Shown here: one piece after another, positions 8,910 through 63,914 of the stretch
Layout: the number at the start of each line of letters is the position of its first letter
Numbering within the stretch: the first letter of the stretch is position 1
Assembly (NCBI GenBank): GCA_943788985.1
Contig: CALSSJ010000002.1
Coordinates: forward strand, 64,001 to 128,000
Source of the DNA: an uncultured Lentisphaerales bacterium
GTDB lineage: Bacteria; Verrucomicrobiota; Lentisphaeria; JABSQK01; UBA12247
Length of the DNA: 64,000 nucleotides
Reading direction: 5' to 3'
Position numbers and translations under genes: made by a program
The notes under the pieces: generated by a model
Seen by the model: only the letters and a program-made list of their open reading frames with translations
Told to the model about the DNA's origin: nothing
The model's database searches: none

Positions 8910-11677
8910 TGCTCTCTCTCTTCGATTACGGACGAGGCCTCGTCCGTGAAAAATGCGCTATGTAATAGCTTTTGCTGGTGCTCTTGAAACAGTTTTTTGT
9001 AGCCGATCGCGGGGCTCGCGGCTGCAGGTCGGCTGATCACGCGCAGATTAAAGCTGGCAAGGCGATTGCGGATGAAGGACCAAGCCCCCAAATTCTCGGC
9101 TTCTTCCTGGAACCAGATGCGATCGGTGACGGCCGCGTACTTCTCAAGAAGGGCTGCGTCCTGCTGCTCTGGAATAGGATAGAGCTGTTCGAGGCGAATC
9201 AGCGCAACGTCGGTAATGCCGAGCTCCTCTCGCATGCTGTACAGCTCATAGTAGACTTTTCCGGTGCAGAACACGACGCGACGTGCGGACTCCGCAGAAA
9301 CCTGATCGTCGTCTATGGTTTCTCGAAACCGCCCCTTTTTGAGCTCGCTTAAAGGCGAGCGGACGAGCTTGTGCCGCAGCAATCCCTTCGGGGTCATCAC
9401 GATCAGCGGCTTGCGATAGCGAACGTGCTGCTGCCGGCGCAGCATGTGGAAGAAATTCGCAGGCGTCGTGGGTTGGGTGACAACGATATTATCCTCGGCA
9501 CAGAGCTGCAGGAAACGCTCGAGCCGCGCGCTGGAATGCTCTGGCCCTTGGCCTTCGTTACCGTGTGGCAAGAGCATGACTAGGCCGCTCATGCGCTGCC
9601 ACTTGGTCTCGGAGGAGGCGATAAACTGGTCAATGATGATCTGGGCGCCATTAGCGAAGTCACCGAACTGGGCTTCCCAGATCACGAGGGCGGTGGGCCG
9701 GGCGGTGGCGTAGCCGTACTCGTAACCCAACACGCCATACTCGGAGAGATGGGAGTTGAACGCTTGAAAGCGCTCCTGGCGCTTCTGGATGTGGTTAAGC
9801 GGTGTGTACTCGCTTTCATCCATGGCGTCTGTCAGGATGGCATGGCGGTGGGAGAAGGTGCCACGCTTGGAATCCTGACCACTTACACGGACCGGATGCT
9901 CTTCCAGTAACAATGAGCCCCAGGCGAGCTGTTCAGCCAGCCCCCAGTCCACGGTCTGATTCTCGAAATACAAGGAGCGACGGTTCTTGAACACACGCTC
10001 CAGCCGCGGGTAGATGTGAAACTCCTCCGGGATGGTCACGAGCGCGTCTGCGATGCGGTTCAGCCGCCGTATGGGAACGCCGGTGTCAGGGCTTTTCTCG
10101 AAGTCCTGGCTGTGCGCACGGCGGAAGTCCTTCCACTGGCGGGCAAACTGCCGCGCAGGAAGCGCCTGGCGGTTGCGCCGCGCCTGCTCGAGTTCGTCCT
10201 CAAGCATGTTCTGGAAGCGGTCGTAGATTCGCTTTGCCTCGGTTTCGGTAACGACGCCTTCGGAAAGCAGCTGGTCGGTGTAGATCTTGAGTACAGTGGG
10301 ATGCTTGTTGATGGCCTCGTACAGCAAAGGCTGGGTGAACCCCGGCTCATCTCCCTCGTTGTGGCCATAGCGGCGATAGCCGAGCAGGTCGATGTAGACG
10401 TCGATCTTGAAGCGCTGACGGAGCTCGATGGCCATACGCACGCAATGCACTACTGCCTCGGGGTCGTCAGCATTGACGTGAAACACGGGCGATTCAGTCA
10501 CCTTGGCAATGTCGGTGCAATATAGGCTGGAACGAGTCTCACGATAGTTGGCAGTGAAACCGACCTGATTGTTCAGCACGATGTGTATGGTGCCGCCCGT
10601 GTTGTAGCCTTTCAAGTTGTGGAAGTTCGCAATCTCGTAGACGACCCCCTGTCCGGATATCGCTGCGTCCCCGTGTACCAGCACTGGGACAATGCGTTGG
10701 GTGTCTTCACCATACAATGAGTCAAGCTTGGCTCTGACGCTGCCCAACGCCACTGGGTCCACGGCTTCAAGATGGGATGGGTTGAACATCAGGGCTAGGT
10801 GAATGTTGTTTCCGCACTCGGTGGTCACGTCTGCGGAATACCCGAGATGGTATTTTACGTCGCCTTCTCCTCCGGCTCCAGCCGACTCGGGTAGCGCGCT
10901 GCCTTCGAACTCGGCGAACACGTTCTCATAGCTTTTGCCAAAGAGGTTGGCCAAGACGTTCAGGCGGCCACGGTGAGCCATGCCGATGACAAACTCTTCC
11001 ACGCCCCATTCGGCGCCGTGTTCAAATAACGCAAAAAGCGCCGGCACAAAGGACTCGCAGCCCTCCAACGAAAAGCGCTTTTGCCCTGTATACTTCTTAT
11101 GGAGGAAGTTCTCGAAGCCGACGGATTCGCTGAGCTTGCTCAGGATCTCTCGTTTCTTCTCCGGAGAATAGCCGGGGCGATTGGCCTTGGACTCCATGCG
11201 CTCATGCAGCCACATTCGGATACCTGAGTCGGGAATATAGCGAAACTCCGTGCCGATCGTGGAGCAGTAGGTCTCCTGCAGATGGCCGATGATGTCCCGC
11301 AACGTAGCCGGTCCGATGCGGATCTGCTTGCCGACGTCGAATACGCGGTCCAAGTCCGCCTCTTCCAGGCGGTGATGCGCCAAGCTGAGGTCTGAACGGA
11401 AAAATCTGCGCGGCCGGACTGGATTGGTGTTCGCAACCAGATGACCACGGTCACGATAGGCGTTCACCAATTTCATGACCGCGGCCTCCCTTTCTCGCGC
11501 GTTGAGGCCCGCAGGCGAGACATGATCATCGCCTGCGCTGCCGTTAAGCCCGTGCTGATAGCCCTGAAAGAACATGCGCCACGAGGGATCGACGCTGGCT
11601 GGATCCGCAGCGTACCGCGCATAAAGGTCGTCGATAAAGGCCCCGTTGACATTGACCGAGTTTGTGAGTTGGTGCAT
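8906..11677 (-). CDS. sucA: 2-oxoglutarate dehydrogenase E1
   Basis: [49 protein letters not shown]. Confidence 0.97.
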
Positions 11678-11769
11678 ACTATCAAAGCCAGAAGAGATGG
11701 CAGTTATCTAAATCGAAGCCGTACTATATTACCCCACACGCACACCTGCCACAGCAGGCAAAGGCAATT

Positions 11770-15367: not shown

Positions 15368-16972
15368 TCACTCAGGGGTTAAAAGTGGCAGTAATACCAC
15401 AAACTTAGCGCCCTGATCCGCGCTCTCGGCGCGGACGCACCCGCCGTGTTGGGAGATGGCCTGATTGGCAATCGTCGTCCCCAGGCCTAAGCCGTCTCCG
15501 CTGGCTTGGAACGGATCAAAAAGCCGGTCCCTAATTTCATCTGCAATGCCCGATCCCGTATCTGTCAGCGTAATTTTCGCGTTTTTTCCGACGCGCTCAC
15601 AGTGCGCCACTATCCGGCGTTCTGAGCCCACAGGCTGCGTGCGTAACGCGTTTATGCTGTTCTCGATCAGTCTAGCAATACTAAATTCAAGCACCTCGTG
15701 ATCTCCCTCGATTTTAAGGTCATGCCCTTCTTGGATATGCATGTCGATCGAGAATTCCTCGAGCCGCTCGCGGCAGGACTCGAATGCTGCCTGGACTAGA
15801 TCATGGACGCGAATGGACCGCCGGTTTAATTCCTGCGTTCCACTCTTGTTAAACCGTGAAATATTCTTACTAAGTTGCTCCAGACGCAGAATGGAGCGAT
15901 CCAGCTTGTCGCAGAGCTCCGGGACTTTCTTCGTGCCTGCTGTGCGCACAGAATTCCCCACTTCCTTGAGCTGCTCCAGTTCCGAGCTCATGACTCCAGC
16001 GATGCGTTGCATCGCAGTGCCCAGAACGGCCAAACGCTTCTCACGAGAATGCTGTTGCAGGAGGAACATATTCTTGAGTACTTCTCGCGCCGTCTCGGAT
16101 AGAATATCCAGAAACGGTTCTAGCTGCTCAAAGTCGAACGAGATGCCTTTCCCTTCGAGGTAGATGAAGCCTTCAAAATCTTCGAACCGAATCGGGAAAT
16201 AGGCGGTCTGCGCCGTGTCATCCGTCCGTCTGCGCTCCGGCATACCTACTGCAGAAATCCGCTCAACCAGCGCGCCTTGCTGTGCGGGATGGGTGATTGC
16301 GCATACTTCAAGTTCACCATGCAGCGTCCTGGCCACAATCCCTAGATCTGCATCCAAAAAGGAGACAAACGCACCCAGAATCGCTCGCGCTGTCTCACCG
16401 AGGTTCCTCTGCACACCGCGTGTCAGTGCCGTGCTTTCATTCATCAGCCGGTTTGTGAGTAGCAACCGTTCGCGTTCACGCTGGGTGAGATTCCATTTCT
16501 CGGTCAGTGCGCGGGCAAGCTGGCGAATCTCCTCAGGCTGAAATGGCTTTTTGAGGTACAGCAGCTTCTCTGCGACCCCAATCTGCTGCACTAGCTCTTC
16601 CTGATTGTAGTCCGCGTAGGCCGTCATGATTACGATCTCGATGTCCTTATCCACGGCGCGAATGTTCTGCGCAGTTCGCAAACCATCCCAGCCCGGCATG
16701 CGCATGTCCAAAAACAAGACGGCAAATGGATTGCCAGCATCGGTGGACTCCTTGACCTGTTCAAAAGCCAGCTGGCCTTCGCCCACCGTTTCCACATCAT
16801 ACTGGATTCCAGGAGCTTCTGCGGCGGGTGCATGATTGCGCGCGAATCGCTTGCGAATCTGATCTAGCAGCGGTCTCGCTTCGCTACTTTTTTCTTTGCG
16901 CAGCAACCGAGCGACCTGCAGGCGCAGGTCTTCCTGATCATCGACAATTAATATTCGCCGGTTGGCCTTCAT
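15368..16972 (-). CDS. Receiver-domain/histidine-kinase-like hybrid protein
   Basis: REC motifs (ILIVDD, LDMRMPGWDG, KPF) and C-terminal HATPase (DTGSGI, GLGLG); no His in the apparent H-box. Confidence 0.85.
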   Translation of the reverse strand: MKANRRILIVDDQEDLRLQVARLLRKEKSSEARPLLDQIRKRFARNHAPAAEAPGIQYDVETVGEGQLAFEQVKESTDAGNPFAVLFLDMRMPGWDGLRTAQNIRAVDKDIEIVIMTAYADYNQEELVQQIGVAEKLLYLKKPFQPEEIRQLARALTEKWNLTQRERERLLLTNRLMNESTALTRGVQRNLGETARAILGAFVSFLDADLGIVARTLHGELEVCAITHPAQQGALVERISAVGMPERRRTDDTAQTAYFPIRFEDFEGFIYLEGKGISFDFEQLEPFLDILSETAREVLKNMFLLQQHSREKRLAVLGTAMQRIAGVMSSELEQLKEVGNSVRTAGTKKVPELCDKLDRSILRLEQLSKNISRFNKSGTQELNRRSIRVHDLVQAAFESCRERLEEFSIDMHIQEGHDLKIEGDHEVLEFSIARLIENSINALRTQPVGSERRIVAHCERVGKNAKITLTDTGSGIADEIRDRLFDPFQASGDGLGLGTTIANQAISQHGGCVRAESADQGAKFVVLLPLLTPE

Positions 16973-26452: not shown

Positions 26453-27745
26453 CTAGCGCCTGCGGCCTGCTTGCCAAGGGATGCGCGTCGCAGCCGCGAG
26501 CGCGCATGCGGGGATGATCGCTAGCACAGCCGTGGAGATGCGTAGTTCTCCGGCGACAGCCCGAACACCGGCAAATATCAGCGGCCCGACCGCGCTGGTC
26601 ATGACCAGCAGAGAATGAAGCTTGCCGTTGATCGCCCCTAACTCTGAACGTCCGAAGCACGCAGGGACGGCAGTGCTCATGATCGGTCCCATGGTTCCCG
26701 TGGTCAAGCCAAGCGTCACCGCCGCCAGCGTGTGCATGCCGGGGCGATCCATGACGGCAAGCGATAGATAGGCGATGGTGGCATTGATGCCCATAAAGGT
26801 CAGCATAGCGCGCGCACCCAGCCGGTCACTCAGCCAGGCCATGGTGAAGCCGGTCGGGATGCTGATGATGGCTACCGGCACAAAGAAGGCCATCGCGGCC
26901 TTGGTCGAGATGCCGCTCTCTGGCCCGATTGACTGGAGATGAAAGGTGTAGCCGGTCAGCACGGTTCCGTGGGCGCAGAGCATCAGCGCGATCACGAGGA
27001 ACTCGAGGCTGCGAACTGCTTCAGTCGCTGGCCGGTCCACGACCGCTGTCTGGGCCGTGGTGGTGGAGCCTTGCTCGCCGTCCACCGATAGGCCGCAGGC
27101 TTCGGGGGTGTCGCGGCAGAAGAGCCAGGCGATCGCCGTGACGCCCAGCCCTAGGACCAACGCCAGGCGGAGCCAGCCGCCATCCCAATCATACAGGTCG
27201 ACCAGGTCAGACATGGCCTTGGGGGCATAGCTGAAGGCCAGGCCGTTTACTACGCCCAAAAGGGCGGCAGCGCGGGCGCGTCGCCGATCGAACCACTTGC
27301 CGACCAGCGTATTGGCGATGATGGGCAGCAAGCCCTGACCGAAGAAGCGCACGCCCAGAAATCCGCAAGCCATAGTCACCATGAAAACAGGGGTTGCGAA
27401 CTCCGCAGCTGGCTTCAGCTGCTGAAGCACCTTGACCAACGTGAATAGGGTCAGGGCCAGACAGGCGGTTGTCATGCAGTAGGCTCGGCGCGCGCCGAGG
27501 CGATCCACTAGCCTGCCTGCGCTCGGCAGGACCAAACCGCTCGTCGCCGTACCGAGCAAGTAGGCAATACTCAGCTGCAGATCTGAGAGGCCGGTTACGG
27601 CGCAGAGGGGCTGGGTAAAGGCCGCGATGCCGGCAGTCTGGCCCGGAAGGCTGGAGAACATTGCCAGGACGGCCAGCAGCAGGATGGCCCACCCGTAATA
27701 AAATGGGACACGTGTTACATCGAACGGTAGCTTGGCCGCAAACAT
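26453..27745 (-). CDS. MFS transporter
   Basis: FYYGW start, GRLVDRLGAR, WFDRRRARA, LSDRLG, about 12 TM segments. Confidence 0.88.
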   Translation of the reverse strand: MFAAKLPFDVTRVPFYYGWAILLLAVLAMFSSLPGQTAGIAAFTQPLCAVTGLSDLQLSIAYLLGTATSGLVLPSAGRLVDRLGARRAYCMTTACLALTLFTLVKVLQQLKPAAEFATPVFMVTMACGFLGVRFFGQGLLPIIANTLVGKWFDRRRARAAALLGVVNGLAFSYAPKAMSDLVDLYDWDGGWLRLALVLGLGVTAIAWLFCRDTPEACGLSVDGEQGSTTTAQTAVVDRPATEAVRSLEFLVIALMLCAHGTVLTGYTFHLQSIGPESGISTKAAMAFFVPVAIISIPTGFTMAWLSDRLGARAMLTFMGINATIAYLSLAVMDRPGMHTLAAVTLGLTTGTMGPIMSTAVPACFGRSELGAINGKLHSLLVMTSAVGPLIFAGVRAVAGELRISTAVLAIIPACALAAATRIPWQAGRRR

Positions 27746-29479: not shown

Positions 29480-31048
29480 ATGCCTAAAGCCTCTCAGGAA
29501 TTATTCATAACTCGCGAATACTCAGGGTTTTCCCTCGATTTAAGAAACTCTGAAAAGCACCTGCAACAGTTACCAAAACTGGCGCAGACATTTGCGGCTG
29601 TGCATGCGCAGATGCAGTGCATTGAGGCGGGGGATATCAAGAATCCGGACGAAGGCAGGCAAGTTACACACTTTGGGGATCGGGCAGTTTACGCAAGCAG
29701 CGAGCTGTTCGCCGACGTCGAGGCATTTTTTGCAGCTGTGCGCAGCGGTGAACTGCTGTTGAACGGCAAGCGTGTATCTGCCGTGGTCATCAACGGGATC
29801 GGCGGGTCCGCCTTGGGGCCCCAGCTTGCGCAGTTCGCACTTCGCGGTCCGTATTGGAACGAGCTGAGCGCCGAGCAGCGCGACGGAAACCCGAAGCTGT
29901 ACATTCTCGATAACACAGATCCGGCTGGCATCCATGACCTTTGTGCGGTAGCCGACTGGTCCACGACTCTGGTCATTACCATCTCCAAGAGCGGCGGCAC
30001 ACGCGAGCCGCGCAACAACATGTTCGCCCTCCAAGCCATCTACGAGCGCGCAGGCCTGAACTTTGCCGCTCATGCCGGTGCGGTGACCATGGCCGGTAGC
30101 GCGCTCGATCAGCACGCCGAGACGAATGGCTGGCGCAAGCGCTGGCACATGGCTGAGTCCATCGGTGGACGCACCAGCGAAACGGCCGTGGTCGGTCACG
30201 TGCCCGCCGCTGCCGCAGGTATTGATTTTGGTCAGTTGCTCGAGGGGGCAGTCTTGATGGACGAGTGGACGCGCGATCCAGACCCCTATACCAATCCTTC
30301 GTATCTGCTGGCAGCCTCCTGGTACCTCCTCGGCGATGGTCGCGGAGATCGCAACATGGTCGTCCTGCCGTACTCTGACCGTCTAGTGTTGCTGGCGCGC
30401 TATCTTCAGCAGCTCGTGATGGAAAGCGTCGGGAAGGGCACAGATTTGCGCGGCGTGCCAGTCGAGCAAGGGCTTAACGTATTTGGGAACAAGGGCGGGT
30501 CCGATGCCCACGCCTTTGTCCAGCAGTTGCAGGAAGGCCGAGACGATTTCTTCGTGACGTTCGTGGAAGTGCTCGAGGACCCAGCGCACTATAATGCGGA
30601 ACAAGGGCTCAGCATGGCGGACTACCTTCATAACTTCCTCGGTGGGCTGGTAGACGCACTGGCCAGCAAGAACCGTCCGGTGATGACCATTACGATCGAG
30701 GCACTCACGCCTGCCGCACTTGGCATGTTGATTGCTCTCTTTGAGCGTGCGGTTGCCGCTTACGCCGAACTCGTGCAGGTAAACGCCTTTCATCAGCCCG
30801 GCGTCCAAGCCTACAAGCTCGCCAGTGGGGATATGGATGCCTTGGCCCAGGCGCTGCAGAAGCATGTCGCCGCCAATGCCGGGAGCGAAGGCCCGGCTGC
30901 GGAGATCGCAGCCGGACTTGGAGCCGCCCAGGCCGTCGAAGGTGTACTGGCCAAGTGGGCCGTAAACGGGCGCAGCTTTGGTGGCGTGACCGTATCCCGT
31001 AGCTTCGACAACGGCACCTGGATTTACGCTTTCCGCGGAGGGAGTTGA
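29480..31048 (+). CDS. pgi: Glucose-6-phosphate isomerase
   Basis: GIGGSALGP, SKSGGT, IGGRTS, QQLVMESVGK, NAFHQPGV. Confidence 0.93.
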   Translation: MPKASQELFITREYSGFSLDLRNSEKHLQQLPKLAQTFAAVHAQMQCIEAGDIKNPDEGRQVTHFGDRAVYASSELFADVEAFFAAVRSGELLLNGKRVSAVVINGIGGSALGPQLAQFALRGPYWNELSAEQRDGNPKLYILDNTDPAGIHDLCAVADWSTTLVITISKSGGTREPRNNMFALQAIYERAGLNFAAHAGAVTMAGSALDQHAETNGWRKRWHMAESIGGRTSETAVVGHVPAAAAGIDFGQLLEGAVLMDEWTRDPDPYTNPSYLLAASWYLLGDGRGDRNMVVLPYSDRLVLLARYLQQLVMESVGKGTDLRGVPVEQGLNVFGNKGGSDAHAFVQQLQEGRDDFFVTFVEVLEDPAHYNAEQGLSMADYLHNFLGGLVDALASKNRPVMTITIEALTPAALGMLIALFERAVAAYAELVQVNAFHQPGVQAYKLASGDMDALAQALQKHVAANAGSEGPAAEIAAGLGAAQAVEGVLAKWAVNGRSFGGVTVSRSFDNGTWIYAFRGGS

Positions 31049-41645: not shown

Positions 41646-41679
41646 CCGAGGTTTTGCGGATTTCGCAAAAACGCGCCTG

Positions 41680-41882: not shown

Positions 41883-41989
41883 AGGCGCAATACGTTGCCG
41901 AGCGCACGATCTGGCAAGATTGTGTCGTGATCCTCCGGACGCTGGTGCTGATTGTGCGGAGTTCGCAAACCCCGTCTTCGTGATCGCTG

Positions 41990-43372
41990 TCAGCCGGCGA
42001 GGGTTTGGATGATGGTCTCGCGGACAGTCGCTTCCTTGGCGTCGATCACTCGGCAGCGGGTCTTGGCTCCCTTCAGCTGATCAAGAATCGGGTGGGTGGC
42101 CGGTGCGTCGGGATTGGCGCGGGCGATTGCATCGGGGAACTTGGCGGGATGCGCTGTTGCCAGGCAGAGGCTCGGGCCGGAACCGGCGAGTTGCTGCGCG
42201 GCGGCGACGCCGACTGCGGTGTGTGGATCGAGCACATAGCCATGATTCTGGTAGCAGGCGGCGATGGTGGCAAGCGTCTGCTCAGTGTTGATGGCGGCCG
42301 CTTGAAAGCCGCTGTCGACACCGTCGGGGCCAAAGGGCACGGACAGGGATGCGGAGTTCGCAAACTCGTCCATGAGCGCGCACACCTTGGTGGCGTCGCT
42401 GCCACAGTGATAGAATAAATAGCGCTCGAAATTACTGGCGACCTGGATATCCATCGAGGGGCTGAGCGTGGGGGCGACCGTGCCGCGTGAGTAGGTGCCG
42501 GTGGTGAAGAAGCGGCTGAGGATGTCATTCTCGTTGGTGGCGACGATCAGGCTAGAGATCGGCGCGCCCATCCGTCGGGCGATGTAGCCAGCGAAGATGT
42601 CACCGAAGTTACCGGTGGGGACGGAGACAGTCACGGACTCCCCGCCTTCGCGTTCAAGGACGCGATAGCAACCGTAGAAATAATAGACGACTTGGGCGAG
42701 GACGCGGGCCCAGTTTACGGAGTTGATGGCTCCCAGTTGATAGTCGCGCTTGAAATCGAGGTCGCGAAATAGCGACTTCATGATGCTCTGGCCATCGTCG
42801 AAGGTGCCGCGGATGGCGAGGTTGTGAACATTCTCATCGAGCACGGAGGTCATCTGCAGCTCTTGCAGCGGACTGACGCGCTGGTGTGGATGCATGATGA
42901 AGATCTCGATGTTCTGGCGGCCACGCAGGCCTTGAATGGCCGCACTGCCGGTATCGCCGCTGGTCGCGCCGAGCACGGTCAACTTCTCGTTGCGTTCGCT
43001 CAGGATGTACTCAAAGACGGGCCCGAGAAACTGCAGGGCGATGTCTTTGAAGGCGAGGGTAGGGCCGTGGAATAGTTCGAGGATGTTGGTGCGGCCGAGC
43101 GGCACGACCGGGGCAACTTCGTCATGGCGAAAAGAGGAGTAGGCACTATTCACCAGCTGCATCAGGTCGCGAGATGGGATGTCATCGATAAAGAGGCTGA
43201 AGACTTCGTGAGCCAGTGCCGGATAGGCGAGGCTGCGCCACTCGGCCAGTCGGTTCCGCACGTCCGGGATTGTCTCCGGAAGAAGTAGGCCGCCGTCGGT
43301 GGCTAGCCCCATCATCACTGCGTCCTTAAAGGAAACGGGCGCGGTCTGGCCCCGTGTACTGATGTATCTCAT
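41990..43372 (-). CDS. thrC: Threonine synthase
   Basis: MRYISTRG, ELFHGPTLAFKD, GATSGDTGSAA, NSVNWAR, VPTGNFG, DPHTA, TAHPAKF. Confidence 0.96.
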   Translation of the reverse strand: MRYISTRGQTAPVSFKDAVMMGLATDGGLLLPETIPDVRNRLAEWRSLAYPALAHEVFSLFIDDIPSRDLMQLVNSAYSSFRHDEVAPVVPLGRTNILELFHGPTLAFKDIALQFLGPVFEYILSERNEKLTVLGATSGDTGSAAIQGLRGRQNIEIFIMHPHQRVSPLQELQMTSVLDENVHNLAIRGTFDDGQSIMKSLFRDLDFKRDYQLGAINSVNWARVLAQVVYYFYGCYRVLEREGGESVTVSVPTGNFGDIFAGYIARRMGAPISSLIVATNENDILSRFFTTGTYSRGTVAPTLSPSMDIQVASNFERYLFYHCGSDATKVCALMDEFANSASLSVPFGPDGVDSGFQAAAINTEQTLATIAACYQNHGYVLDPHTAVGVAAAQQLAGSGPSLCLATAHPAKFPDAIARANPDAPATHPILDQLKGAKTRCRVIDAKEATVRETIIQTLAG

Positions 43373-44984: not shown

Positions 44985-47900
44985 TTAGCGCTGGCCTAGC
45001 CTGAGCGGCTCAATCGTGATTGTAGCCGACCGATCCTGCGGATAGAACAGCAAAAACAGTCGCTCGGCCGTGCGTGTTCCGTCAATCGATGCGGTGAATT
45101 GCCAGGCCGTTACGGCTGATTTGAGCCGTAGCGTGCGCAGGTCAAACACCAGCTCATTTCGTCCAGGCCGCACAAAGAGTGGCTCGCTCTCCAGGTATTC
45201 ATCGCCAAACTGGAAGGCCATGGCCAGGCGACTGCCACTGGCCATCTGCGCTTGCAGCGGGACGATCCAGGTCTGGCCCGGGTGTACCTCGGTGTCGGTC
45301 TGCGCCGCCATCACGATCTTTTCCGATGCGCCCGCCGTCTGCTCCAGAGCGAAGCGAAACCTGACGCCGCCGTCCCGCTGCTCGACAAGCTCACTGGGCA
45401 GAATATCCGTCCACCCTTCCGGCAAGGCCCACTCAGTCACCGCGAGCTCCTCCGTGGCGACTTCCTGCGCCCGTTTCAAGTGATCCTGGCGTTCTTGTGC
45501 CAGGTCTCGCCCGCGCAGCCCCAGCGTCTCGGTCGCGCCGTGCGCCAGAAAACTGGTCACGATATTGATGCCCATCTGCACCGACCCTTCCTGCATTTCC
45601 CGGGGCGATAGGTCCGTCAACGACGGCATCAGCGGATGCGTCCTCGGGTCGATTTCAAGCCCGTCTCCGTAGTCATTGCGGGTGTAGACCACGCGCCAGC
45701 GGCCATCCAGTTGCACGCCCTCTAGATAGTCGAGGCGGTACTTATCTCCCGGCGGGACCCGATATCCCAGGAAGCCCGTGCTCAGATCGTACGGCGCCGC
45801 GAAGAGTGGCGCAGTCAGCGGAATTTTGGCCAGCCGCTTTCCCGGCAACACCTGTGCGAGCGCCTCGCGGACTGCGCCGTCGAATGCTTCGCTGTCCAGT
45901 GCCGACGAATCGTTGATCCACAGGCATCCGCCTTGGGCGAGATACTCGGCCAGCCGGGTGACCTCCGTTGCGGACATCGCAAATGGGTCGTGCCCCGACA
46001 TAAACAAGAACGGGGCCTCGGTGAGTTCCTGATCATCCGTGCGGATCGCCCGGCTTCCGTAGGGCAGCAGACTGCCCAACCGTTGCTCAAACTGATGAGC
46101 CAGATGCAGCATTGCCGTGGCGTCGCAGTCCCAATCGCCGCCATACTCCAGAACCGGCAGCGTGCGTTGCCACTGGCTCGAGATCGCGTGCTGCGCATCT
46201 GCTCCCGCAGTGCCGCCTGGCCGCACCAGCGCCGCAGCCGCGGAGAGGGCAGTGCTCGCTGCCGGAATCGTCACTGCGCCCACTGGGGCGTCATCAATGA
46301 TCATGCGTCGTCTGCCCACCAGCTCTGGCCCGGGCCTTGTAACTTCGGCGGTGCGCTTGGCCGTGGGCGCTGCAGCCTGGCTGGCGAGGGCCGCCAAGTC
46401 GATGGCTTCACGTGTGGCGGCGCTGCGGAGTGAGCCGCTGGCACTGATGGGTGCCCGCGCCGGTGCGAACTCCGCAACTTCTTGTCCAGGACTGGCTGAC
46501 TGGCGCGAGGCGCGCTCGCCCGCCAGTGCTTGCCCCATCGCTTGGGCGGTGCGCTTGGCCGTGGGCGCTGCAGGATCGCTGGCGACGGCCGCCACCGCGA
46601 CCGCTTCGCGTTCGGCGTGGGCACTGCGGAGCGTGCCGCTGCCACTGATGGGCGCGCGTGCCGGTGCGAACTCCGCAACTTCCTGTCCTGGGCTGGCTGA
46701 CTGGCGTGAGGCACGCTCGCCCGCCAGTGCTTGCCCCATCGCTTGGGAGGTGCGCTTGGCCGTGGGCGCTGCTGCCTGGCTGGCGACGGCGGCCACATCG
46801 ACGGCTTCACGTGTGGTGGCTGCGCTGCGGAGCGTGCCGATGACGCCAATCGGCGCGCGCGCTGGTGCGAACTCCGCAACTCCTTGTCCAGAGCTGGCTG
46901 ACTGGCGTGAGGCGCGCTCGCCCGCCAGTGCTTGCCCCATCGCTCGGGCGTTGCGCCTGGCGGTGGGGGCCTCAGCCTGGCTGGCTACCGCGGCGACATC
47001 GACGGCTTCACGTGTGGTAGCTGCGCTGCGGAGCGTGGCGATGGCACTGACGGGGGACCGCGCCGGTGCGAACTCCGCAACTCCTTGTCCAGAGCTGGCT
47101 GACTGACGTGAGGCACGCTCGCCCGCTAGTGCTTGCCCCATCGCCTGGGCGGTGTGCTTGGCTACGGGCGCGGCAGTCCTCGCTGGCGACGGCCGCCACA
47201 GCGACCGCCTCGCGTGCGGCGTGGGCACTACGGAGTGTGCCGCTGGCGCCAATGGGGGACCGTGCCGGTGCGAACTCCGCAACTTCCTGTCCCGGGCTGG
47301 CGGACTGGCGTGAGGCGCGCTCGCCTGCCAGCGCCTGGACGGCCCCTTCAGTCGCCTGGCGACGCCCGGTCTCGGCCGCGGCTTCGCGGACGTCCTGCGG
47401 TTGCTCGTGCGCGCGGCCGACGGTTCCGATTGCGATCTCCGCAACTGCTGCGGAGTTCGCAGTCGCCCGTTCCGGGCCAAGCGCCTGCTCGGCGCTGTGG
47501 GCAGTTGCCTCGCGGGCCAGCTTGCCGCCCTCGGGGGCTGCGCGCTCGCTGCTTTCGGCATGACGCAGCGCAACGCTGGCGGTGCTCTCTGCCGGAGCGA
47601 CCTGCGCTGCCGGACGGCTCAGCTCTGGCACTCGAACTTGCGGCTCGGCCACGGTCGCCAGCGGCGTTGGGGTTGCCTCGAGAGACTGGCTCTCGTCCAT
47701 CATTTCTTCCGCGCGCTCCCGTGCTTCGGCCGCCGTGGGTTGCTGCTCCGCCAGCGCCTTGTGCACCGGCGCCGCGGTCGCGGCCTCGGTCGATTGGTCT
47801 GCTGGTTCCACCGGCTCGTGGGCCAATTCAGGGGCGATCGCCTCTGGCTGCTCGTCCGTTTCCTGCTGCGCTTGTTCTGGCTCGGCTGGCGCGGATTCAT

Positions 47901-50295
47901 CGACCACTTCGCGCTCCACCGGCTGCGGGGCCTCGGGCTCTGCGACCGCCGCACTCTCGGTGGTTGCGATCTCGGCACTCACCTCCTGCTCGACGATCTC
48001 TTCGCCGGCGGTGACCGTCATGATGGTCACGATTTCCTCGGTCGGCTCTTCGCGGGGCGAGGATTTAGGCAGCACGACAAACAGGAGTAATGCATGCACT
48101 GCCACGGAGGCCAGCACGAAGCGCGCGCGTTCATTGCCGCGAACCGCATGGATTAGCAGCGCGAGCAGGGCCAGAACGATCAGCAGCCAGGCCAGCCACC
48201 AGAGTACGTTCCAGCCGCTGTCTGCGGCCTTGGCCTCCGCCAGCGGCGGCGCGGCTACGCGTGTTTGCCGCGAGACCTCGACCGAGAGCGGAACACGCAC
48301 TGGCATCAGTCCATCTGCCTGGGCGACAATCTCGGTCGCCAGCTGTTCGCTCGGCAACGGGCGTTCCAAGCGCCAGACAAACGGCGTGGTCTGCCAATCT
48401 GCTGTTGTGGCTAGGCTGGCGGTCTCGAACTCCAGGCCTGCGGCCGGAGAGCGAAGCGACGCCGCGGCGGCTCCCTCCGGATCTAGTCGCAGCTCGGCGA
48501 TGCCCGCGACCCGCACTTCGTGTTCGCCCTCGGCCACTGTGACCGCACTTAGCCGCAGCAGAAGTTGCGGAGTTCGCACTTCGCCGTGAAACGGAACCTG
48601 CCAGGATTTTCCCGCGAAGTTGATCGATACCGTCCCTTCAAATGGCCCGGCCTCGGTCTGCTCGGTGGCGGCAATGAGGGAGAGCCGGCTCGTGGCAGTG
48701 CCCGCCAGATCGCCCTCCGCGCGCACCGTCACGTGCGGCGGGGGCTGGATGGAGAGCGTGGCCGCGTCGCCTGCGCTACCTCCGTACAACTGAATCTCGA
48801 GGTCTGCCTTTTGTGGCACGCCCGCGTAAAGCGGGGCGAAGGTGACCACCTTGGGCTCGGCCAGCATGCTCGCTTCCAAACCGGCTGCGGTGGCATCGAG
48901 CGCCAGCTTTGCCGGCGCAATGTCGCCAGCGACCGCTCGCTCGGCCAGCCGGGCCGGGCGGAAACTGCGGGCTCTGGGCCCGCCGCTCGCTGCTGCCGGC
49001 CCTGTTACGACCGGGCGCACTGCACCTTGCAGCGAGATTAGATCGGTTCGCACCAGCGGTTGGTCGTCCAAGGCTGCTTTTGCGGAGAGCGCAAACCGCT
49101 GCATACGGGCCTGCTGCGTGGGCGAGAAGCGCATCAGGCCAGGGACGGGCGTAGGGAGTGGGGGCAACGTGGAGTCGTGGGATAGTGCCGTCGCCACGAT
49201 GGTGGCCGTGCCGTCGAAATCACCGCGCAGCCAGGCGCAGAAGCCATCGGCCAGCGTGACCACCCGCAGCGTGATATCGGTGGAGGCAATGAGTTCGTAG
49301 GTTGGGGCCTCGCCCAGCCCTGGTGAGAGCGTGTTGCGGCCGCGTTGAAATGTGGTGAGATTCTCAGCACCATTGAGTCGCGGGGCACCGCCGCTGACCT
49401 GCAGCAGCGGCTGGCGCATACTGTCGTCGAGCCACAGTTCCGTCTCTGCCGCGAGGAAGCCGCGTGCTGCGACTTGGCGGCGATCGATGCGATGAAAAAC
49501 ATCCCGAAACAGCGCGGGCAAGGCGTCGGCATCGGGTGCCTGCACATGCATGCCGCCGGTCTTTTTCGCAATCCGGGCCATCAGCGATTGGTCGACTTCT
49601 GCGCTTAGGCCGATGGTGAATACCGGGGTCTCGCGCAGGCTCTCGTGGGCCTCGCGGTAGGCGCGATGGGGGCGCCCGTCTGAGAACAGCAGAATTGCCC
49701 GGCGGTTGCCGGTTTCCAGGCCGTCGAGCATGCGCGCTGCCGCGGCAAGCGGCAGGTCGAAGTCGGTCGAGCCGCGTGGGCGGAGCGCCCGCACCATGCT
49801 CGCGACATCTGGGCAGTCCTGCGGCGCTACCGGCACTTGGATGACTTCTGGCTCATCGCGAAAGCTCACCACCCCGACGTGCTGGATCCGGCGGCTCTGC
49901 CGCGCCAGGTCCAGGAACTCCTGCAGCGCCCGCAGTCTTGCGTTGTCGGGGTCGTGCTTGCGCATGCTGTGTGAGCTGTCGATGAGAGCGACCAAGTCAT
50001 AGCGTTCTTTGCGAAACTCGTGCTCTGCTGTTATTGGCACGGATTTCCCGGCGGCCAGCAGCGAGACTGGGAAGGTCCCAGATTTGCGGAGTTCGCAACG
50101 CGCTACGATCAAGCGGCGGCCGTTACGCTCGCTCAGGATCGCTGCTGGAAAGCGTTGAGGCAGCTCAGAGCCGACGATCAACTCGCCAGCCTCGAGGGCG
50201 GCCACGGCGGCGGGTGCCTGGGCTTCGAACCAGAAGGTTTCGCTGGCTGAGACCGTGGCCACTAACAGTACGGTAAGGAGAATGCGCATATTCAT
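44985..50295 (-). CDS. Giant membrane-anchored protein (vWA, TM pair with TonB-like SxxxH, acidic linker, 67-aa repeats, DUF4159-like domain), split by a 1-nt frameshift near 47175-47179
   Basis: MIDAS motif DSSHS...LFSDG; SVAVHALLL; C-terminal GGDW...PFLFMSGH..EYL..GG. Repeat period is 201 bp except one 202-bp unit, which locates the extra base. Confidence 0.8.
46347..47338 (-). repeat. Five intragenic tandem repeats of about 201 bp (67 aa)
   Basis: Anchor 13-mer recurs at 46464, 46665, 46866, 47067 and 47269; unit peptide QALAGERASRQSASxGQxVAEFAPARxP. Confidence 0.92.
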
Positions 50296-51539: not shown

Positions 51540-51977
51540 TCAGCCGCAGGTGAGGACCAGACGCTCATAGACGGTCTGGCCGCCGTGGTGGAGGCAATCG
51601 TGGCTCAGGGCGCAGCCGTGATCATTGGCGATCTGGATGCGTATCCCAGTGGTTGCGGAGTCCGCAAGCCAGGGTGCTATCTCGCGCTCGAAGAGGGCGC
51701 GGAGGGTGCCGGACAGGCCTTTAAGGAGGCGGTGCGGAGTTCGCAAATCCGGCAGTAGGTCACTGAGCGATTGGGCTTCGCCGCCGGGGATGTGGTGGTA
51801 GGCAATGCCATGCGTGGCATAGAATTCGGTCGGGTCCTGATCGGTCCCGAGGCGCTGACCCAGGCCGGCGGTGGTTGCGGTGGGCCCTGGCAGGCGGGCA
51901 ATGCGCAGCTCGCCGGGAGGTAGATCAGTGATCGCGAGCCAGACGTCTACGGGCACAGCATTGAGGATCAGCAGCAC
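51540..51977 (-). CDS. Hypothetical protein, possibly 5'-truncated
   Basis: 145-aa ORF filling an otherwise empty gap; start uncertain; contains two copies of the 13-bp motif family. Confidence 0.45.
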   Translation of the reverse strand: MLLILNAVPVDVWLAITDLPPGELRIARLPGPTATTAGLGQRLGTDQDPTEFYATHGIAYHHIPGGEAQSLSDLLPDLRTPHRLLKGLSGTLRALFEREIAPWLADSATTGIRIQIANDHGCALSHDCLHHGGQTVYERLVLTCG

Positions 51978-55358: not shown

Positions 55359-55920
55359 GTGAGATCTCTTATGCCTTCCTAAAAAGGGCTACTGATTACC
55401 AGTCTTCGTCGGAAACTCGAGAAATTTGGCGGCGCTTCGTTTCGTTTTCCGGCCTCAACCATACTGGGTAACGTGCGCACACCTGCTGCCGTGATGGGAG
55501 TAGTTCACTCGTTTTTCGTCGCCTCCAGCAAGCCTTTCTGCTCCAGGAACTGGCCTATTTCATGCGTGATGGCGTCAAGATGTAGACCGGAGCCAAAGCC
55601 CTCCTTGATCTAGTTTCGCAATGGAATCCCGGATATTTTGAGCGCTGCGACAAAGCTCTGGCCGTTGCGCTCTTCGCGTCTCGATTCCGGCTTGTCGGTG
55701 TAGGCGGCTTCGTCCAGCAGCCCAGACGACGTGGCACGTCACGACTTACCGTTCTTTCCCAACCCGAAAACCAAAACCATCGCAATCAAATGCAACTTAT
55801 TTCGCCGTCGCATCAGTAGGCCGGGAAGGTCCCGTATTGGCGGAGTTCGCACCGCGATGGGGACGATGTCTTGCGTCGCCGCCTTGAGCGCCTCCACGCA
55901 TGCGCACCCTACTACCTCCC

Positions 55921-56389: not shown

Positions 56390-56944
56390 ATGGAACAATT
56401 TATAACGCTCATGTTTGCTGGCGGTCTGGCTGCTTGGTTACTTCCTGGCTGCGGGCAACCTGCGGAGCCGGCTGCTACGAGCGAGGCGGGAAAAGCACCT
56501 GCCGCGACTGCTTTGCCCTATCACCAGGTGATCGAAGCGGAGTCCGCAACGGTGGCTGATGGCGATTTTGCGGAATTCGCAACCCCTGGGGCATCGGCTG
56601 GCGCTTGTCTGCGGATTGCGCCGAGTGCGGAGAAAAAGGCGTTTGGCGGATCTGCGGAGTTCGCAATTGAGCTGCCGAAGGCGCAGCAGGTGAGTATCTG
56701 GTTTCGGACGAGGTGGGGTGGGACGTGTGCGAATTCGTTCGAGCTGGTGGCACCGGCCGGGCCGCTGCAGTTGATTGGGGAGGATGGAACTTATGGGGCT
56801 TGGCACTGGGTCAAAGGATCGCGGCTGCCGCTGGCGGCTGGAAAGAATGTGTTTGTAATGAAACCGCGGGAGCCGGATGTGCAGATTGATCAGATCGTGG
56901 TGACCGCCGATGAGGGCTTTGTACCGATGGGAGTGGAGCAATGA
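56390..56944 (+). CDS. Lipoprotein with a beta-sandwich (carbohydrate-binding-like) domain
   Basis: Lipobox LPGC; IEAE, WHWV, L.AG.N, RE..VQIDQI patterns. Confidence 0.65.
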   Translation: MEQFITLMFAGGLAAWLLPGCGQPAEPAATSEAGKAPAATALPYHQVIEAESATVADGDFAEFATPGASAGACLRIAPSAEKKAFGGSAEFAIELPKAQQVSIWFRTRWGGTCANSFELVAPAGPLQLIGEDGTYGAWHWVKGSRLPLAAGKNVFVMKPREPDVQIDQIVVTADEGFVPMGVEQ

Positions 56945-60111: not shown

Positions 60112-61059
60112 CTACGTTTGCTCTCGTAAACAGCGCAAGCTGAACAACTTGCCGCCTTCTGGAAGCTCGCCGGTGCCATATCGTCGTTGCTTCGCCCGGT
60201 CTTCGCCGTACATCTCCGTCGCAACCTGCTGTACGAACAACTTGGAGCCGATTACGGCGCCATCTGTCCAATACCGAACACGACGCGAAGCCACCAACTG
60301 GATGGCTGGCTTTCGCTTCGCCTCGTCGTAGGCGGCCTTCACCGTATCACCCGTTGCGTCCTTTCGTGCAGCTTCCATCGTTCGGGCAATATCGGCCCGT
60401 AGCTCGTCTGCGACCTCCGCAACACTCCAGTGCCTAGCGCGCTCACCCAGGGAGCACTTGACGTATTTAAAGAACGCCCGTCCAAAGGGGTGCTTTCCTG
60501 AGCCGTTCCAGACACCCCAGCTGCAGAATCGATAGTCGGCGGGGTTCTCGACAATTCCGGCACGAACCGAGTTCAATTCGATGTACTTAATGCATGTCCA
60601 CAACGAAGCTTTTCCATCCAATAGCACGCTTTTGAAGCGATCAGCCCAGAGCCGACCGCGACGTGTGATCTTGCGCGTCCGATTGAACCAGATCGTGAAG
60701 CTCTGTTGTAGGTCACGAACCATGCAACTGAAGTCGATCATCCGTGCTCGGATCTCCTCAATATCGGGGACCTCTGCGTCGATCTGGCGTTTGCCCTCGT
60801 AGTAGCTGTTATAGCGGCGAACCGCCTCCTCCTCGCTCGGCAACGCACACGGCACATGAATCACTGCGTGCCAATGATTGCTCATTACCGTGTAGCTGAC
60901 TACCTCCACTGTGTAAAAGCGCTGCACTTTGTGCAGCAGCTTGACGAACATCTCCTGCTCGACAGGTCCGAACGGTCGATCCTGATGCGTGCCCGCCGTC
61001 CGATTCATTACGTGGTAGAATGCTCCACCACCTCGGTATTTGATGCGTGCAATTCTCAT
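60112..61059 (-). mobile_element. REP-associated tyrosine transposase (RAYT, Y1/HUH family)
   Basis: YHVMNR, MSNHWH (HUH), LWADRFKSVL, YIELNSVRAGIVENPADYRFCS. Confidence 0.88.
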
Positions 61060-61147
61060 TCCTTGGGTCTTCCCTATTGACCTTTACTCATTTCCTAAGT
61101 TATCCTCATCCCTGACTAAATCCATTCCTATTTTGTAATTAAAACCA

Positions 61148-61177
61148 TGTCCCTTAAAAGTTTGTCCCTTAAAAGTT
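61148..61177. repeat. Perfect 15-bp tandem duplication TGTCCCTTAAAAGTT x2 upstream of the RAYT
   Basis: Copies at 61148-61162 and 61163-61177, in an AT-rich leader. Confidence 0.85.
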
Positions 61178-61250
61178 GCTCATGCCAGAGCGGACCGGAT
61201 GACCGGATAACTGGTAATATCAGACTAGCGTCTGACGGGTAGGCGACGCA

Positions 61251-61813: not shown

Positions 61814-61940
61814 ATTGTAGCTGTATTGACTAATGAGGAGATTTGCAAGGTTTTTACTTGCTTGGGATCCAGGCATCCAGGCATAGGCGGGGCAAAAGCA
61901 GGCGCAACCCAATGCGTCGTCCCTACCCCTATTTAGGTGC

Positions 61941-63914
61941 TCAGCGGGGAGGCGCGCCGGGGAATTGTTGGGGATCGGGTGTGTGCAGTTGCCCGTAGAG
62001 GGCTTTGAGGCGGACACGGATGGTCTCGGCGGGGGCAAGCTGATAGGCGCGTTCGAGGACACGACAGGCTTGCTGGTACAGGCCTTGCTGATAGTACATG
62101 ACGGAGGCGTCGCCGAGGAGGGAGGTGTCGTCGGGGGTAAGGGCAAGGGCTTTCTCGAAGTGAAACCGGGCTTTGGCTGGATCGGGCATGGTCTGGACGT
62201 AAACCATGCCGACGCGCCGGTGGCCGATGGAAGCAAAGAGGGGGTTAGGGTGCTCGGTAGTTGCTTTGTGAGCAGCGAGGTAGAGGTCGGTGTTCTTGGC
62301 CTCCCAAGCCCTGTCGGCCATGACTTGGAGGTTGTTGCGCGCGTTCTCGCTGGTGGACGTGAAGGCAAAGCAGCGTTTGAAGGCGGCGATGGATTCGGGG
62401 TAGCGCTGGTCTTCGTAGTAAGCGTTAGCCAGACCAAACCAGGCTGGGCCATATGCGGGGTAGAGTTCGACGGAGCGTTCGAGGCAGGTATAGGCATCGT
62501 CGAGCCAGACGCGCTTCTGGTCTGCAGACTCCGCAGACTCGGCCGCGGCGATGAGTGCGGCTCCGGCGATCATCTGCATGCGGGCGCTATTGGTGGAGAC
62601 GTGGCGATCGGCCATGGCAAGGGTGAAATCGTCGCGCCAATTGAGGGTGCGGGCAAAGGTGAGGCCGGCGAAGAGGACGGCTACGAGGATGGCAAGGGCG
62701 ACGCCGAGCTTGCGGTTGTTTGCGGAGTTCGCAGCGAGTATGCGGCTGAGCCCGAGGGCTGCGATCATCGCAAAGCCGAGCGATGGGATGTAGACGAACC
62801 GCTCGCTCATAAAGGCGCCGATGGGAAAGACGAGGTTGGAGACGAGAACGAAGGTGAGCGCATAGAAGGCGATGGCACCGGGAATGATTTTTTGGCCCGC
62901 GCGCAGGAGGACGATGGCGGTGCCAATGAGGCTGGCGTGGAGGGCGGTGGAGAACAGGGCGCGGAGGTCGCCCAAGTTTAGGATTGGGATGTGGAAGGGG
63001 TAGTAGTCGTGGGTAAGCGGATAGGGGAGGACGAGTAGCTTGAGGTAGATGAGCCAGGTGTAGGCGACGGTGGCGAAGCGCTGGCCGGTGGAGGCGTGCA
63101 GAAAGGGGTCGTTCATGATGTCTTGGTGCTCGATGCTCTCGGGGATGCCGAGGATAGCGAGGCGCAGGGCGACGTAGGCGATGCTGGCGAGCAGTATCGG
63201 AAGGGCGACGCGAATGGCTTCGCCGCGAGTCTTCACGCGGCCGCAAAGGTAGAGCAGGAGGGGGCCGGCAACGACGAACGAAACGGGGGTTTCTTTGGCC
63301 AGCAGGGCGAGAAAGAGGACGCAGCCGGAGCCGATGGACCACCAGTGCGAAGATTTGCGGAGTCCGCAAACCGCAAGCGCTAGGGCGGATAGGGCGAGGA
63401 GTAGGCAGAGGAGTTCGTCGCGACTTTTGATGTTTGCGACGACTTCGGTGTGAAGTGGGTGAAGGGCAAAGACGGCGGCGGTGAGAAAGGGCCAGGAGCG
63501 CCACCAACTGCCGCTCGTCTGGGTGGCGAAGAGCCAGTAGATCAGCAGAATGGTGAGGGCGTAGAGCAGGACGTTACTGGCGTGCTGAAGGTGAGGCAGG
63601 GCCGCGGAGTTGCCGAAGAGTTGGGATTCGATGGCGAAGGTTGCGAGGGTGAGGGGGCGGTAGCGCCCACCGGAAACGCGATTGCGCTCGCTGCCAAAGT
63701 AGCCGGTGAAGAGTTCGGTGGTGAAGATGTCGGGCAGCCCGGAAAAGCCTTGGGCGGTGAAGGTGTTGCCGGTGATGTAGATCTTGTCGTCCATGGCGTA
63801 GCCGAAGGTGACGCTGATCCCATAGAGGGCGAGAGTGCCGAGCACCAGGACAAGACAGGGGACCCGGTGCAGGCGCAGCCACGGCGGGCTAGCTGAGCGC
63901 TTGCGTTTTTTCAT
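61941..63914 (-). CDS. TMTC-like GT-C glycosyltransferase with C-terminal TPRs
   Basis: MDD, YRPLTLATF, FALHPLHTEVVANIKSRDE, LLAKE, PYPLTHDY, ERFVYIPSLG, then TPRs. Confidence 0.85.
   Translation of the reverse strand: MKKRKRSASPPWLRLHRVPCLVLVLGTLALYGISVTFGYAMDDKIYITGNTFTAQGFSGLPDIFTTELFTGYFGSERNRVSGGRYRPLTLATFAIESQLFGNSAALPHLQHASNVLLYALTILLIYWLFATQTSGSWWRSWPFLTAAVFALHPLHTEVVANIKSRDELLCLLLALSALALAVCGLRKSSHWWSIGSGCVLFLALLAKETPVSFVVAGPLLLYLCGRVKTRGEAIRVALPILLASIAYVALRLAILGIPESIEHQDIMNDPFLHASTGQRFATVAYTWLIYLKLLVLPYPLTHDYYPFHIPILNLGDLRALFSTALHASLIGTAIVLLRAGQKIIPGAIAFYALTFVLVSNLVFPIGAFMSERFVYIPSLGFAMIAALGLSRILAANSANNRKLGVALAILVAVLFAGLTFARTLNWRDDFTLAMADRHVSTNSARMQMIAGAALIAAAESAESADQKRVWLDDAYTCLERSVELYPAYGPAWFGLANAYYEDQRYPESIAAFKRCFAFTSTSENARNNLQVMADRAWEAKNTDLYLAAHKATTEHPNPLFASIGHRRVGMVYVQTMPDPAKARFHFEKALALTPDDTSLLGDASVMYYQQGLYQQACRVLERAYQLAPAETIRVRLKALYGQLHTPDPQQFPGAPPR

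Follow-up and report, generated by a model that had tools for sequence, protein, structure and literature searches.

The 64,000-nucleotide stretch analysed here (hereafter the window; positions 64,001 to 128,000 of contig CALSSJ010000002.1, from an uncultured Lentisphaerales bacterium) is an ordinary chromosomal segment of the Planctomycetes-Verrucomicrobia-Chlamydiae (PVC) type, about 87% of it coding according to our own gene list. It carries sucA-sucB-lpd, nrdR, pgi, trpS, gcvT, exbBD, moaA, thrC, an nfuA-like gene and hflX, along with a MoxR/vWA/transglutaminase cluster, a sulfatase gene and genes for a DUF1559 prepilin-type protein, a vWA-DUF4159 protein and several TPR proteins. Recurring within these genes is a near-palindromic word of 13 bases, TGCGGAGTTCGCA, which is the subject of the present analysis. 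We are confident that this word is a lineage-specific, DNA-level signal of the class represented by the uptake signal sequence (USS), the DNA uptake sequence (DUS) and the highly iterated palindrome HIP1. The lineage that carries it is poorly sampled, as judged from the glucose-6-phosphate isomerase PGI, whose homologs from Lentisphaeria and Victivallaceae metagenome-assembled genomes are 55-60% identical and whose best match reaches 74%, and from a TPR protein whose next relative is 55% identical.

The abundance of the word is far out of proportion with chance. Exact copies number 14, whereas 100 dinucleotide-preserving shuffles of the window yielded a mean of 0.01 and never more than 1. With one mismatch allowed the count rises to 32 (14 exact and 18 one-mismatch copies; shuffle mean 0.19), and with two it reaches 58 strand-matches at 50 positions, against 3.09 +/- 1.83 in the shuffles (maximum 9). 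The positions are thus spread almost evenly over the classes with 0, 1 and 2 mismatches (14/18/18), whereas the cumulative chance values for the same steps (0.01/0.19/3.09) rise steeply; the sites therefore pile up on one exact sequence. The same pile-up is a property of USS and DUS. Every coordinate listed for the 14 exact copies in an initial annotation of this DNA was correct, and the 17 one-mismatch copies that it reported are all real, although it overlooked one, at 30898. Once a 201-bp tandem repeat is counted as a single occurrence, 10 exact sites remain as independent and 28 within one mismatch, the latter corresponding to a density of about 1 per 2.3 kb. The arms of the word in their native spacing, TGCG-N5-CGCA, are found 40 times in the window; the other spacers give 1, 0, 1, 1 and 0 occurrences for lengths 0-4 and 2, 1, 3, 2, 6 and 3 for lengths 6-11. 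Measured against a third-order Markov expectation, sub-words of TGCGGAGTTCGCA head the list of enriched words in the window at lengths of 8, 9 and 10 bases alike.

The sites within one mismatch are given below with their strand, their location and, where they are translated, the peptide read through them; 27 of the 28 independent sites lie in open reading frames (ORFs) and one (55839) is clearly noncoding.

27395..27407, minus strand: exact; in the MFS transporter gene 26453-27844(-), read AAEFAT
41955..41967, plus strand: exact; in the sugar transferase gene 41506-42012(+), read CAEFAN
42350..42362, plus strand: exact; antisense in thrC 41990-43486(-), read FANSAS, the last Ala falling at a Gly position
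46464..47281, minus strand: five exact copies (46464, 46665, 46866, 47067, 47269), one per 201-bp (67-aa) tandem unit, read VAEFAP; one origin
47431-47443(-) and 47449-47461(+): inverted pair, the first a one-mismatch copy and the second exact, with 5 bases between them; inside the vWA gene, read ANSAAVAEIA
48566..48578, plus strand: exact; antisense in the vWA gene, frame 1, read VRTPQL
50085..50097, plus strand: exact; antisense in the vWA gene, frame 0, read CELRKS
51733..51745, plus strand: exact; in the unannotated ORF 51540-51977(-), frame 1
56653..56665, plus strand: exact; in the lipoprotein-like ORF 56390-56944(+), read SAEFAI
62721..62733, plus strand: exact; antisense in the TPR gene 61941-63914(-), read AANSAN
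9284..9296, minus strand: one mismatch, palindromic variant TGCGGAGTCCGCA; in sucA, read SAESAR
16668..16680, plus strand: one mismatch; antisense in the sensor kinase/receiver gene 15368-16972(-), frame 1
29827..29839, plus strand: one mismatch; in pgi, read LAQFAL
30898..30910, plus strand: one mismatch, the copy missing from the earlier list; in pgi, read AAEIAA
31797..31809, minus strand: one mismatch; antisense in trpS, read RANYAT, in a variable stretch
33757..33769, plus strand: one mismatch; in gcvT, read PADFAP
34452..34497, plus strand: a pair of copies in the TPR gene 33910-36699, each with one mismatch, the first at 34452 (read FAESAT) and the second at 34485 (read VAEFAT)
35130..35142, plus strand: one mismatch, palindromic variant TGCGAAGTTCGCA; in the TPR gene 33910-36699, read LAKFAT
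40277..40289, minus strand: one mismatch; antisense in moaA, frame 0, read SELR
41357..41369, minus strand: one mismatch; antisense in the DegT-type aminotransferase gene, frame 0, read CELRSR
41655..41667, plus strand: one mismatch; in the sugar transferase gene, read FADFAK
51654..51666, plus strand: one mismatch, palindromic variant; in the unannotated ORF 51540-51977(-)
55839..55851, plus strand: one mismatch; noncoding, its 39-nt surroundings 85% like 50064-50102
56569..56581, plus strand: one mismatch; in the lipoprotein-like ORF, read DFAEFAT
60409..60421, minus strand: one mismatch; in the ORF 60112-61059(-), which resembles a REP-associated tyrosine transposase (RAYT; REP, repetitive extragenic palindrome), read VAEVAD
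63356..63368, plus strand: one mismatch, palindromic variant; antisense in the TPR gene 61941-63914(-), frame 0, read CGLRKS

The initial annotation had noted that the word enters core genes, and sites are indeed present in sucA, pgi, trpS, gcvT, moaA and thrC. Sites 51654 and 51733 share an ORF, 51540-51977(-), that has no family match. As for the gene that holds the tandem repeat, the vWA ORF 47008-50295 and the DUF4159 ORF 44985-47573 are one gene (44985-50295, minus strand) split by a 1-base frameshift near 47179-47183, inside the 201-bp repeat, whose last spacing is 202; the frameshift reflects either an error in sequencing or a mutation of recent origin. Near-identical, intact proteins are found in databases, P0159 (1769 aa) with five repeats and P0160 (1635 aa) with three, and the repeat number therefore varies between assemblies.

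The most mundane explanation for the excess would be chance, a biased use of codons or peptides, or an artefact of assembly or adapters. A preference for certain peptides does exist: 20 of the 27 coding sites (~74%) share one frame, in which a leading T is followed by the codons GCG, GAG, TTC and GCA, so that the peptide is Ala-Glu-Phe-Ala (Ala-Asn-Ser-Ala from the opposite strand), and A-x-F-A is naturally common in TPR proteins. AEFA or ANSA is present 9 times in 63,121 aa of PGI homologs and 6 times in 36,165 aa of TPR homologs, counts that are uninformative because A-x-F-A is common in these families. However, every shuffle falls far below the observed numbers, including those that preserve proteins and codon usage. 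When synonymous codons were shuffled within each gene, which leaves all proteins and the per-gene codon usage intact, the 12 exact copies that fall in the shuffled gene set compared with a mean of 0.18 and a maximum of 2 in 500 runs, and the 35 occurrences of TGCG-N5-CGCA with 6.0 +/- 2.1 (maximum 15). Shuffling the order of codons gave 0.006 exact copies and 1.8 occurrences of TGCG-N5-CGCA. With the tandem block removed and one mismatch allowed (200 runs), 19 sites were observed in frame 2 against 0.52 expected, and 7 in frames 0 and 1 together against 0.75 (maximum 3). The word is favoured in the reading frame that is least costly, and it is enriched in the other frames too. Its two Ala codons, GCG and GCA, make up 27% and 19% of the Ala codons, respectively, while the preferred GCC (40%) is not used.

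These results bear out the proposal in the initial annotation that the word is a DNA-level signal and not a protein motif or codon effect: under the codon-preserving null that it had put forward as a check, observed counts far exceed expectation (12 exact copies against 0.18), and all frames are enriched. Its further claim of frame independence was overstated: the excess is present in all three frames, but the use of frames is strongly biased toward one of them (20 of 27). An artefact fares no better as an explanation, since the copies are in frame within intact, conserved genes and since, at the protein level, the independently deposited near-identical proteins P0159 and P0160 also carry the five AEFA repeats found in the vWA gene. 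We know of no sequencing adapter that resembles TGCGGAGTTCGCA. The protein-preserving shuffles and the by-frame test already refute chance, codon usage and artefact as the source of the excess, and we give this explanation practically no credence.

How the word came to be where it is can be read from alignments of the host proteins: PGI with 60 homologs, the TPR protein encoded by 33910-36699 with 10 homologs, TrpS and MoaA with solved structures, and ThrC with 77 translated loci among the matches listed. None of the alignments of these five proteins has an insertion or deletion at a motif site, so that substitution is how the word was written. The majority of sites are in parts of the proteins that vary; at others, the word has replaced conserved residues. 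At the PGI site 29827, the first motif Ala stands where 51 of the 60 homologs have V or L (V 26, L 25, M 5 and A 3). The last motif Ala of the ThrC site (42350) takes the place of the consensus Gly found in 91% of the 77 orthologs among the matches listed. In the TPR protein, Ser replaces an Ala that is invariant in 10/10 homologs (34452), AEFA ends in an Ala where 9/10 have Pro (34485), and another Ala stands where 8/10 have Pro (35130), at which site the nearest relative, P0122, reads LAEFAT. All four changes (one in ThrC, three in the TPR protein) are in the direction that the word requires. Since the word exceeds protein-preserving nulls, uses non-preferred Ala codons and sometimes displaces conserved residues, we conclude that pressure at the DNA level maintains it. 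The proteins of the nearest relative have a motif-type peptide at 2 of the 5 sites compared (AQFA in PGI, AEFA in the TPR protein), which hints that the word may be older than this species and that its sites may turn over; since peptides of the AEFA type are frequent in these families in any case, this is no more than a hint.

Descent by substitution bears directly on the possibility that the copies are REP-like hairpin elements, spread by the RAYT-like protein of 60112-61059(-). This protein partly matches the Y1_Tnp family (E = 1.5e-7) and the NCBIfam model of the REP-associated tyrosine transposase, although its score on the latter (53 bits) falls short of the curated cutoff (80 bits). When single-stranded, the word can fold into a hairpin with a stem of 4-5 bp, and one inverted pair (47431/47449) is present; the hairpins, however, have little stability (between -3.5 and -4.5 kcal/mol, with z between -1.6 and -2.4), and neither the word nor a hairpin copy flanks 60112-61059. 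A repeat search found no longer element shared by the copies beyond the word and a few bases, the tandem block aside, and an Rfam scan of the window returned tRNA-Leu only and no RNA family for the word. REPs are longer than this word and extragenic. Given that 27 of 28 sites are in ORFs and that the five alignments are free of indels, the copies are not inserted elements, and a REP origin is very improbable.

Around the word, the symmetry extends further than its 13 bases. Of the 28 independent sites, 17 have T at position -1 and 17 have A at position +1; one step further out, G or T occupies -2 and C or A occupies +2. The dyad thus spans about 17 bp and can be written roughly as KT-TGCGGAGTTCGCA-AM. 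The flanking T and A had been recognised by the initial annotation, which described a quasi-palindrome of 13 bp. Within the word, the palindrome is broken by the pair G5/T9 and by the central base, which is G in most copies. Among independent sites, the exact asymmetric word accounts for 10, and the perfect palindromes TGCGGAGTCCGCA and TGCGAAGTTCGCA for 4 and 1, respectively.

This anatomy calls to mind closely packed sites for an abundant protein that would bind DNA as a dimer and organise or mark part of the chromosome, the presence of sites being selected regionally. A nucleoid-associated or domain-specific organiser would be a candidate, as would an orphan methyltransferase of the kind associated with HIP1. 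The dyad that reaches beyond the 13-mer (T in 17/28 before it, A in 17/28 after it), the strict spacing of the arms (40 occurrences with N5 against 0-6 with other spacers) and the lack of an orientation bias relative to genes all speak for such a protein. Against it, a homodimer should take symmetric forms at least equally, whereas the asymmetric word prevails by 10 to 4 and 1; the dimeric binding site suggested in the initial annotation needs qualifying to this extent, as a simple homodimer site does not predict an exact asymmetric 13-mer that outnumbers perfect palindromes. Drive toward one sequence accommodates this preponderance more easily. The fraction of perfect 13-mers is unusually high for a family of operators of the helix-turn-helix type, and the density is 10-40 times that of matS, Noc or SlmA sites. 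Finally, no candidate protein is encoded in the window. No genes for a methyltransferase or for proteins like MatP, Noc or SlmA were found in the 64 kb, and the only nucleic-acid-binding candidates are NrdR and the RAYT-like ORF, in line with the initial annotation, which had seen no cognate protein there. On balance we consider such a dimeric protein somewhat unlikely, though it is a close rival of the reading that we favour below.

The 28 independent sites are divided 20 to 8 between plus and minus strands (P = 0.036); when the near-palindromic variants, whose orientation is ambiguous, are removed, the ratio becomes 15:7 (P = 0.13), and because the strand bias is lost in this way, we claim no polarity. 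Relative to the gene strand, 11 sites have the same orientation and 10 the opposite, which amounts to no bias and is in keeping with a tag for DNA uptake or recombination as well as with a dimeric protein. The GC skew climbs to between +0.08 and +0.155 in the 52001-64000 segment, although its larger ORFs (52304-54937, 60112-61059 and 61941-63914) are mostly on the minus strand.

The word appears to be confined to this lineage. As controls we used 80 ThrC-bearing loci among the matches listed (1,325,823 bases, all at 59% identity or less), drawn among others from Lentisphaerae, Kiritimatiellae, Verrucomicrobiota, Planctomycetia, Brocadiaceae and Phycisphaerae, with 11 PVC loci tabulated individually. 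Exact TGCGGAGTTCGCA is absent from these 1.33 Mb of control loci among the matches listed, and the arms in N5 spacing (36 occurrences) are not set apart from those with spacers of 3, 4, 6 and 7 (30-42). No dispersed 11-mer exceeds 6 copies in any of these control loci, against 10 in a 21-kb slice of the window. A megablast search with 41000-64000 gave no plasmid matches. The statement in the initial annotation that the word is like none known is consistent with our literature search, in which the 13-mer was not found (subscription journals and supplements lie outside that search). In the same literature, PVC names combined with uptake sequence, iterated palindrome or over-represented motif returned nothing relevant, and 11-mer sub-words appeared only in papers on animal or human cell biology, apparently unrelated. 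A term search of the text of Elhai's HIP survey gave no mention of PVC phyla.

What might such a word be for? The initial annotation had named a dimeric binding site, an uptake signal and a repair bias as alternatives. By analogy with known systems, it is tempting to view the word as a tag for self DNA in DNA uptake, homologous recombination or both, spread by drive; we favour this reading tentatively, and rate it as possible, short of probable. A very specific factor, encoded outside the window, would read the word as duplex DNA. Alleles carrying the word would be preferentially taken up or converted, and the word would spread by molecular drive until halted by protein constraint. Our preference for uptake or recombination is based on the exact, asymmetric pile-up, the size of the excess and the behaviour in coding regions, which match those of uptake sequences, and on the fact that HIP1, the only palindromic analogue, is now proposed to be an uptake signal. 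The proposal is that HIP1 serves as an uptake recognition sequence and is linked to transformation (PMC13756078; bioRxiv 10.1101/2024.09.10.611283).

Several observations weigh against an uptake or recombination tag. All observations come from one 64-kb window, compared with the DNA of distant relatives. No uptake, competence or receptor genes were found in the window, where the only pilin-like gene is that of the DUF1559 prepilin-type protein, a member of a large PVC family, and a literature search on natural transformation in PVC phyla listed no paper that mentions it or comEC. Conserved alignment columns differ at 4 of 10 motif positions, compared to 187 of 940 elsewhere (Fisher P = 0.12), a trend that is not significant. 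USS and DUS are asymmetric words of 9-12 bp, whereas the word in the window is a near-palindrome of 13-17 bp; they are frequently arranged as inverted terminator pairs, whereas here 1 of 28 sites is noncoding and the sole inverted pair is intragenic. The distribution is uneven as well. The first 27 kb hold 2 of the 28 independent sites (binomial P = 4.8e-5) and none of the 10 independent exact ones (P = 0.004), and sites with up to two mismatches number 1, 2, 3, 5, 8, 12, 6 and 9 in successive 8-kb segments (hand count). This patchiness occurs despite a homogeneous tetranucleotide composition (r = 0.91-0.96 over five segments). Uniform drive does not predict a patchy density, which resembles the uneven and periodic spread of HIP1. 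Extended dyad symmetry, near absence from noncoding DNA and patchy density thus argue against a tag for self DNA, and the same features favour a dimeric protein. Patchy sites in a compositionally uniform window would fit a domain-limited or periodic spread, as reported for HIP1, for which nucleoid roles have been proposed along with an uneven, periodic distribution (PMC5861425).

The word could also be a functionless by-product of a sequence-specific bias in repair or gene conversion, whereby a nuclease of the very-short-patch type would correct near-cognate sites to match the consensus. An origin by substitution, the clustering of near-cognates around one exact sequence and an excess in all frames and on both strands are what such a bias would produce. 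Patchy density, on the other hand, is not expected from an enzymatic bias acting genome-wide, and known repair biases act on sites of 4-6 bp, so that a specificity of 13-17 bp would be unprecedented. In the case of HIP1, the conservation of sites has been used to argue against continual replenishment by biased repair (PMC5861425). We regard a repair by-product as improbable.

Returning to the tag for self DNA, one may go further and propose that a sequence-specific word for the recognition of self DNA arose independently in an uncultured PVC lineage, as a near-palindrome of 13-17 bp that would be read in uptake or recombination. Taken as a whole, this proposal is rather unlikely to be correct in all its parts. 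Should it be, the word would represent the first self-recognition system of its kind outside Proteobacteria and cyanobacteria, and would mean that natural transformation, specific at the level of species, exists in the PVC superphylum, with one of the many DUF1559 prepilin-type proteins as a possible receptor. An independent PVC case would show that such words evolve repeatedly, would open a way to study how genes are exchanged or chromosomes organised in bacteria for which genetics is almost absent, and would supply a compact oligonucleotide for the pull-down of its putative reader. The word is also of practical use as a marker for binning and for the detection of foreign DNA in genomes of this lineage. 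It further illustrates how far pressure on DNA can reach into protein, as exemplified by the Ala of thrC where 91% of the 77 orthologs among the matches listed have Gly.

Other features of the window deserve mention in their own right. The RAYT-like ORF 60112-61059(-), of 315 aa, adjoins an ORF for a PemK/MazF-like toxin (61251-61622); both have a third-position GC content below that of their neighbours, 15-bp tandem repeats lie at 61139-61177, and the region 60112-61622(-) may be a small mobile or addiction module. Two stretches 3.9 kb apart, 52001-52170 and 55921-56093, are 83-90% identical, and the ORF 55900-56259(+), which overlaps one of them, aligns only with the central part of the exosortase (EpsH) model; pieces of exosortase genes, duplicated or truncated, thus flank the gene of a Laminin_G_3 protein (52304-54937). 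An AT-rich inverted repeat (44871-44977; arms of 36 nt, 86% complementary and 35 nt apart) separates the Nfu-type gene from the end of the DUF4159 gene; it stands out in a window of otherwise 60% GC and could be a bidirectional terminator or some other element. The ORF 56941-57657(+) matches the D123 (Cdc123-like) family with E = 9.7e-21; this family is known mainly from eukaryotes. An ORF of 477 aa at 58089-59522(-), odd in composition, without a family match and antisense to the real hflX (58107-59390, plus strand), is spurious, a long ORF of the sort that GC-rich DNA typically yields. Three ORFs of 227-370 aa have a coding-like third-position GC content: 12240-13181(+) and 3878-4990(-), which have no Pfam or NCBIfam match, and 23341-24024(+), which has only a weak match to TPR_2 in Pfam (E = 0.0058).

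Among known systems, sequence-specific uptake words are, to our knowledge, established only in Neisseriaceae and Pasteurellaceae. Like the DUS and USS of these families, the word in the window is one exact short sequence, over-represented by at least two orders of magnitude, mostly intragenic, present on both strands and lineage-specific; unlike them, in addition to its sequence and phylum, it is patchy in density. USS and DUS are spread in hundreds to thousands of copies over whole genomes; the 64 kb analysed here contain 10 independent exact sites and 28 within one mismatch, unevenly placed. Nucleoid-organiser sites (matS for MatP, NBS for Noc, SBS for SlmA) share with it a dyad symmetry over 12-16 bp, a regional distribution and tolerance within genes. 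Those sites, however, number tens per genome and are degenerate, whereas the word occurs about once per 2-6 kb and is dominated by one exact asymmetric sequence. REP and REPIN elements, too, are imperfect palindromes that are short, rich in GC and repeated many times, and the window does encode a protein resembling their RAYTs; in contrast to them, the word is intragenic and in frame, and has neither an insertion footprint nor a common flank of the GTAG type. Chi and KOPS (FtsK-orienting polar sequences) are asymmetric 5-8-mers co-oriented with replication, unlike a near-palindromic 13-mer with an orientation ratio of 15:7 (P = 0.13). HIP1 (GCGATCGC) of cyanobacteria, which for long had no assigned function, is likewise palindromic, hyper-abundant and intragenic, and its uneven or periodic spread along the chromosome, on a scale of 10-90 kb, may have a counterpart in the patchiness of the sites in the window; it is a perfect 8-mer, however, whereas the word extends over 13-17 bp with one asymmetric pair and a fixed centre, its consensus has no GATC or CGATCG methylase site, and its host is a PVC bacterium. 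The resemblance to USS and DUS extends to the way in which the sites are accommodated: they are made by substitution, mainly at variable residues, with a frame bias toward tolerated peptides, much as the study by Findlay and Redfield describes for USS and DUS, where a frame bias, a preference for poorly conserved residues and encoded peptides at doubled frequency are reported (PMC2817400). What distinguishes the word from USS, DUS and HIP1 is the phylum, the sequence, the length of 13-17 bp, the symmetry built around a fixed asymmetric core and the patchy density.

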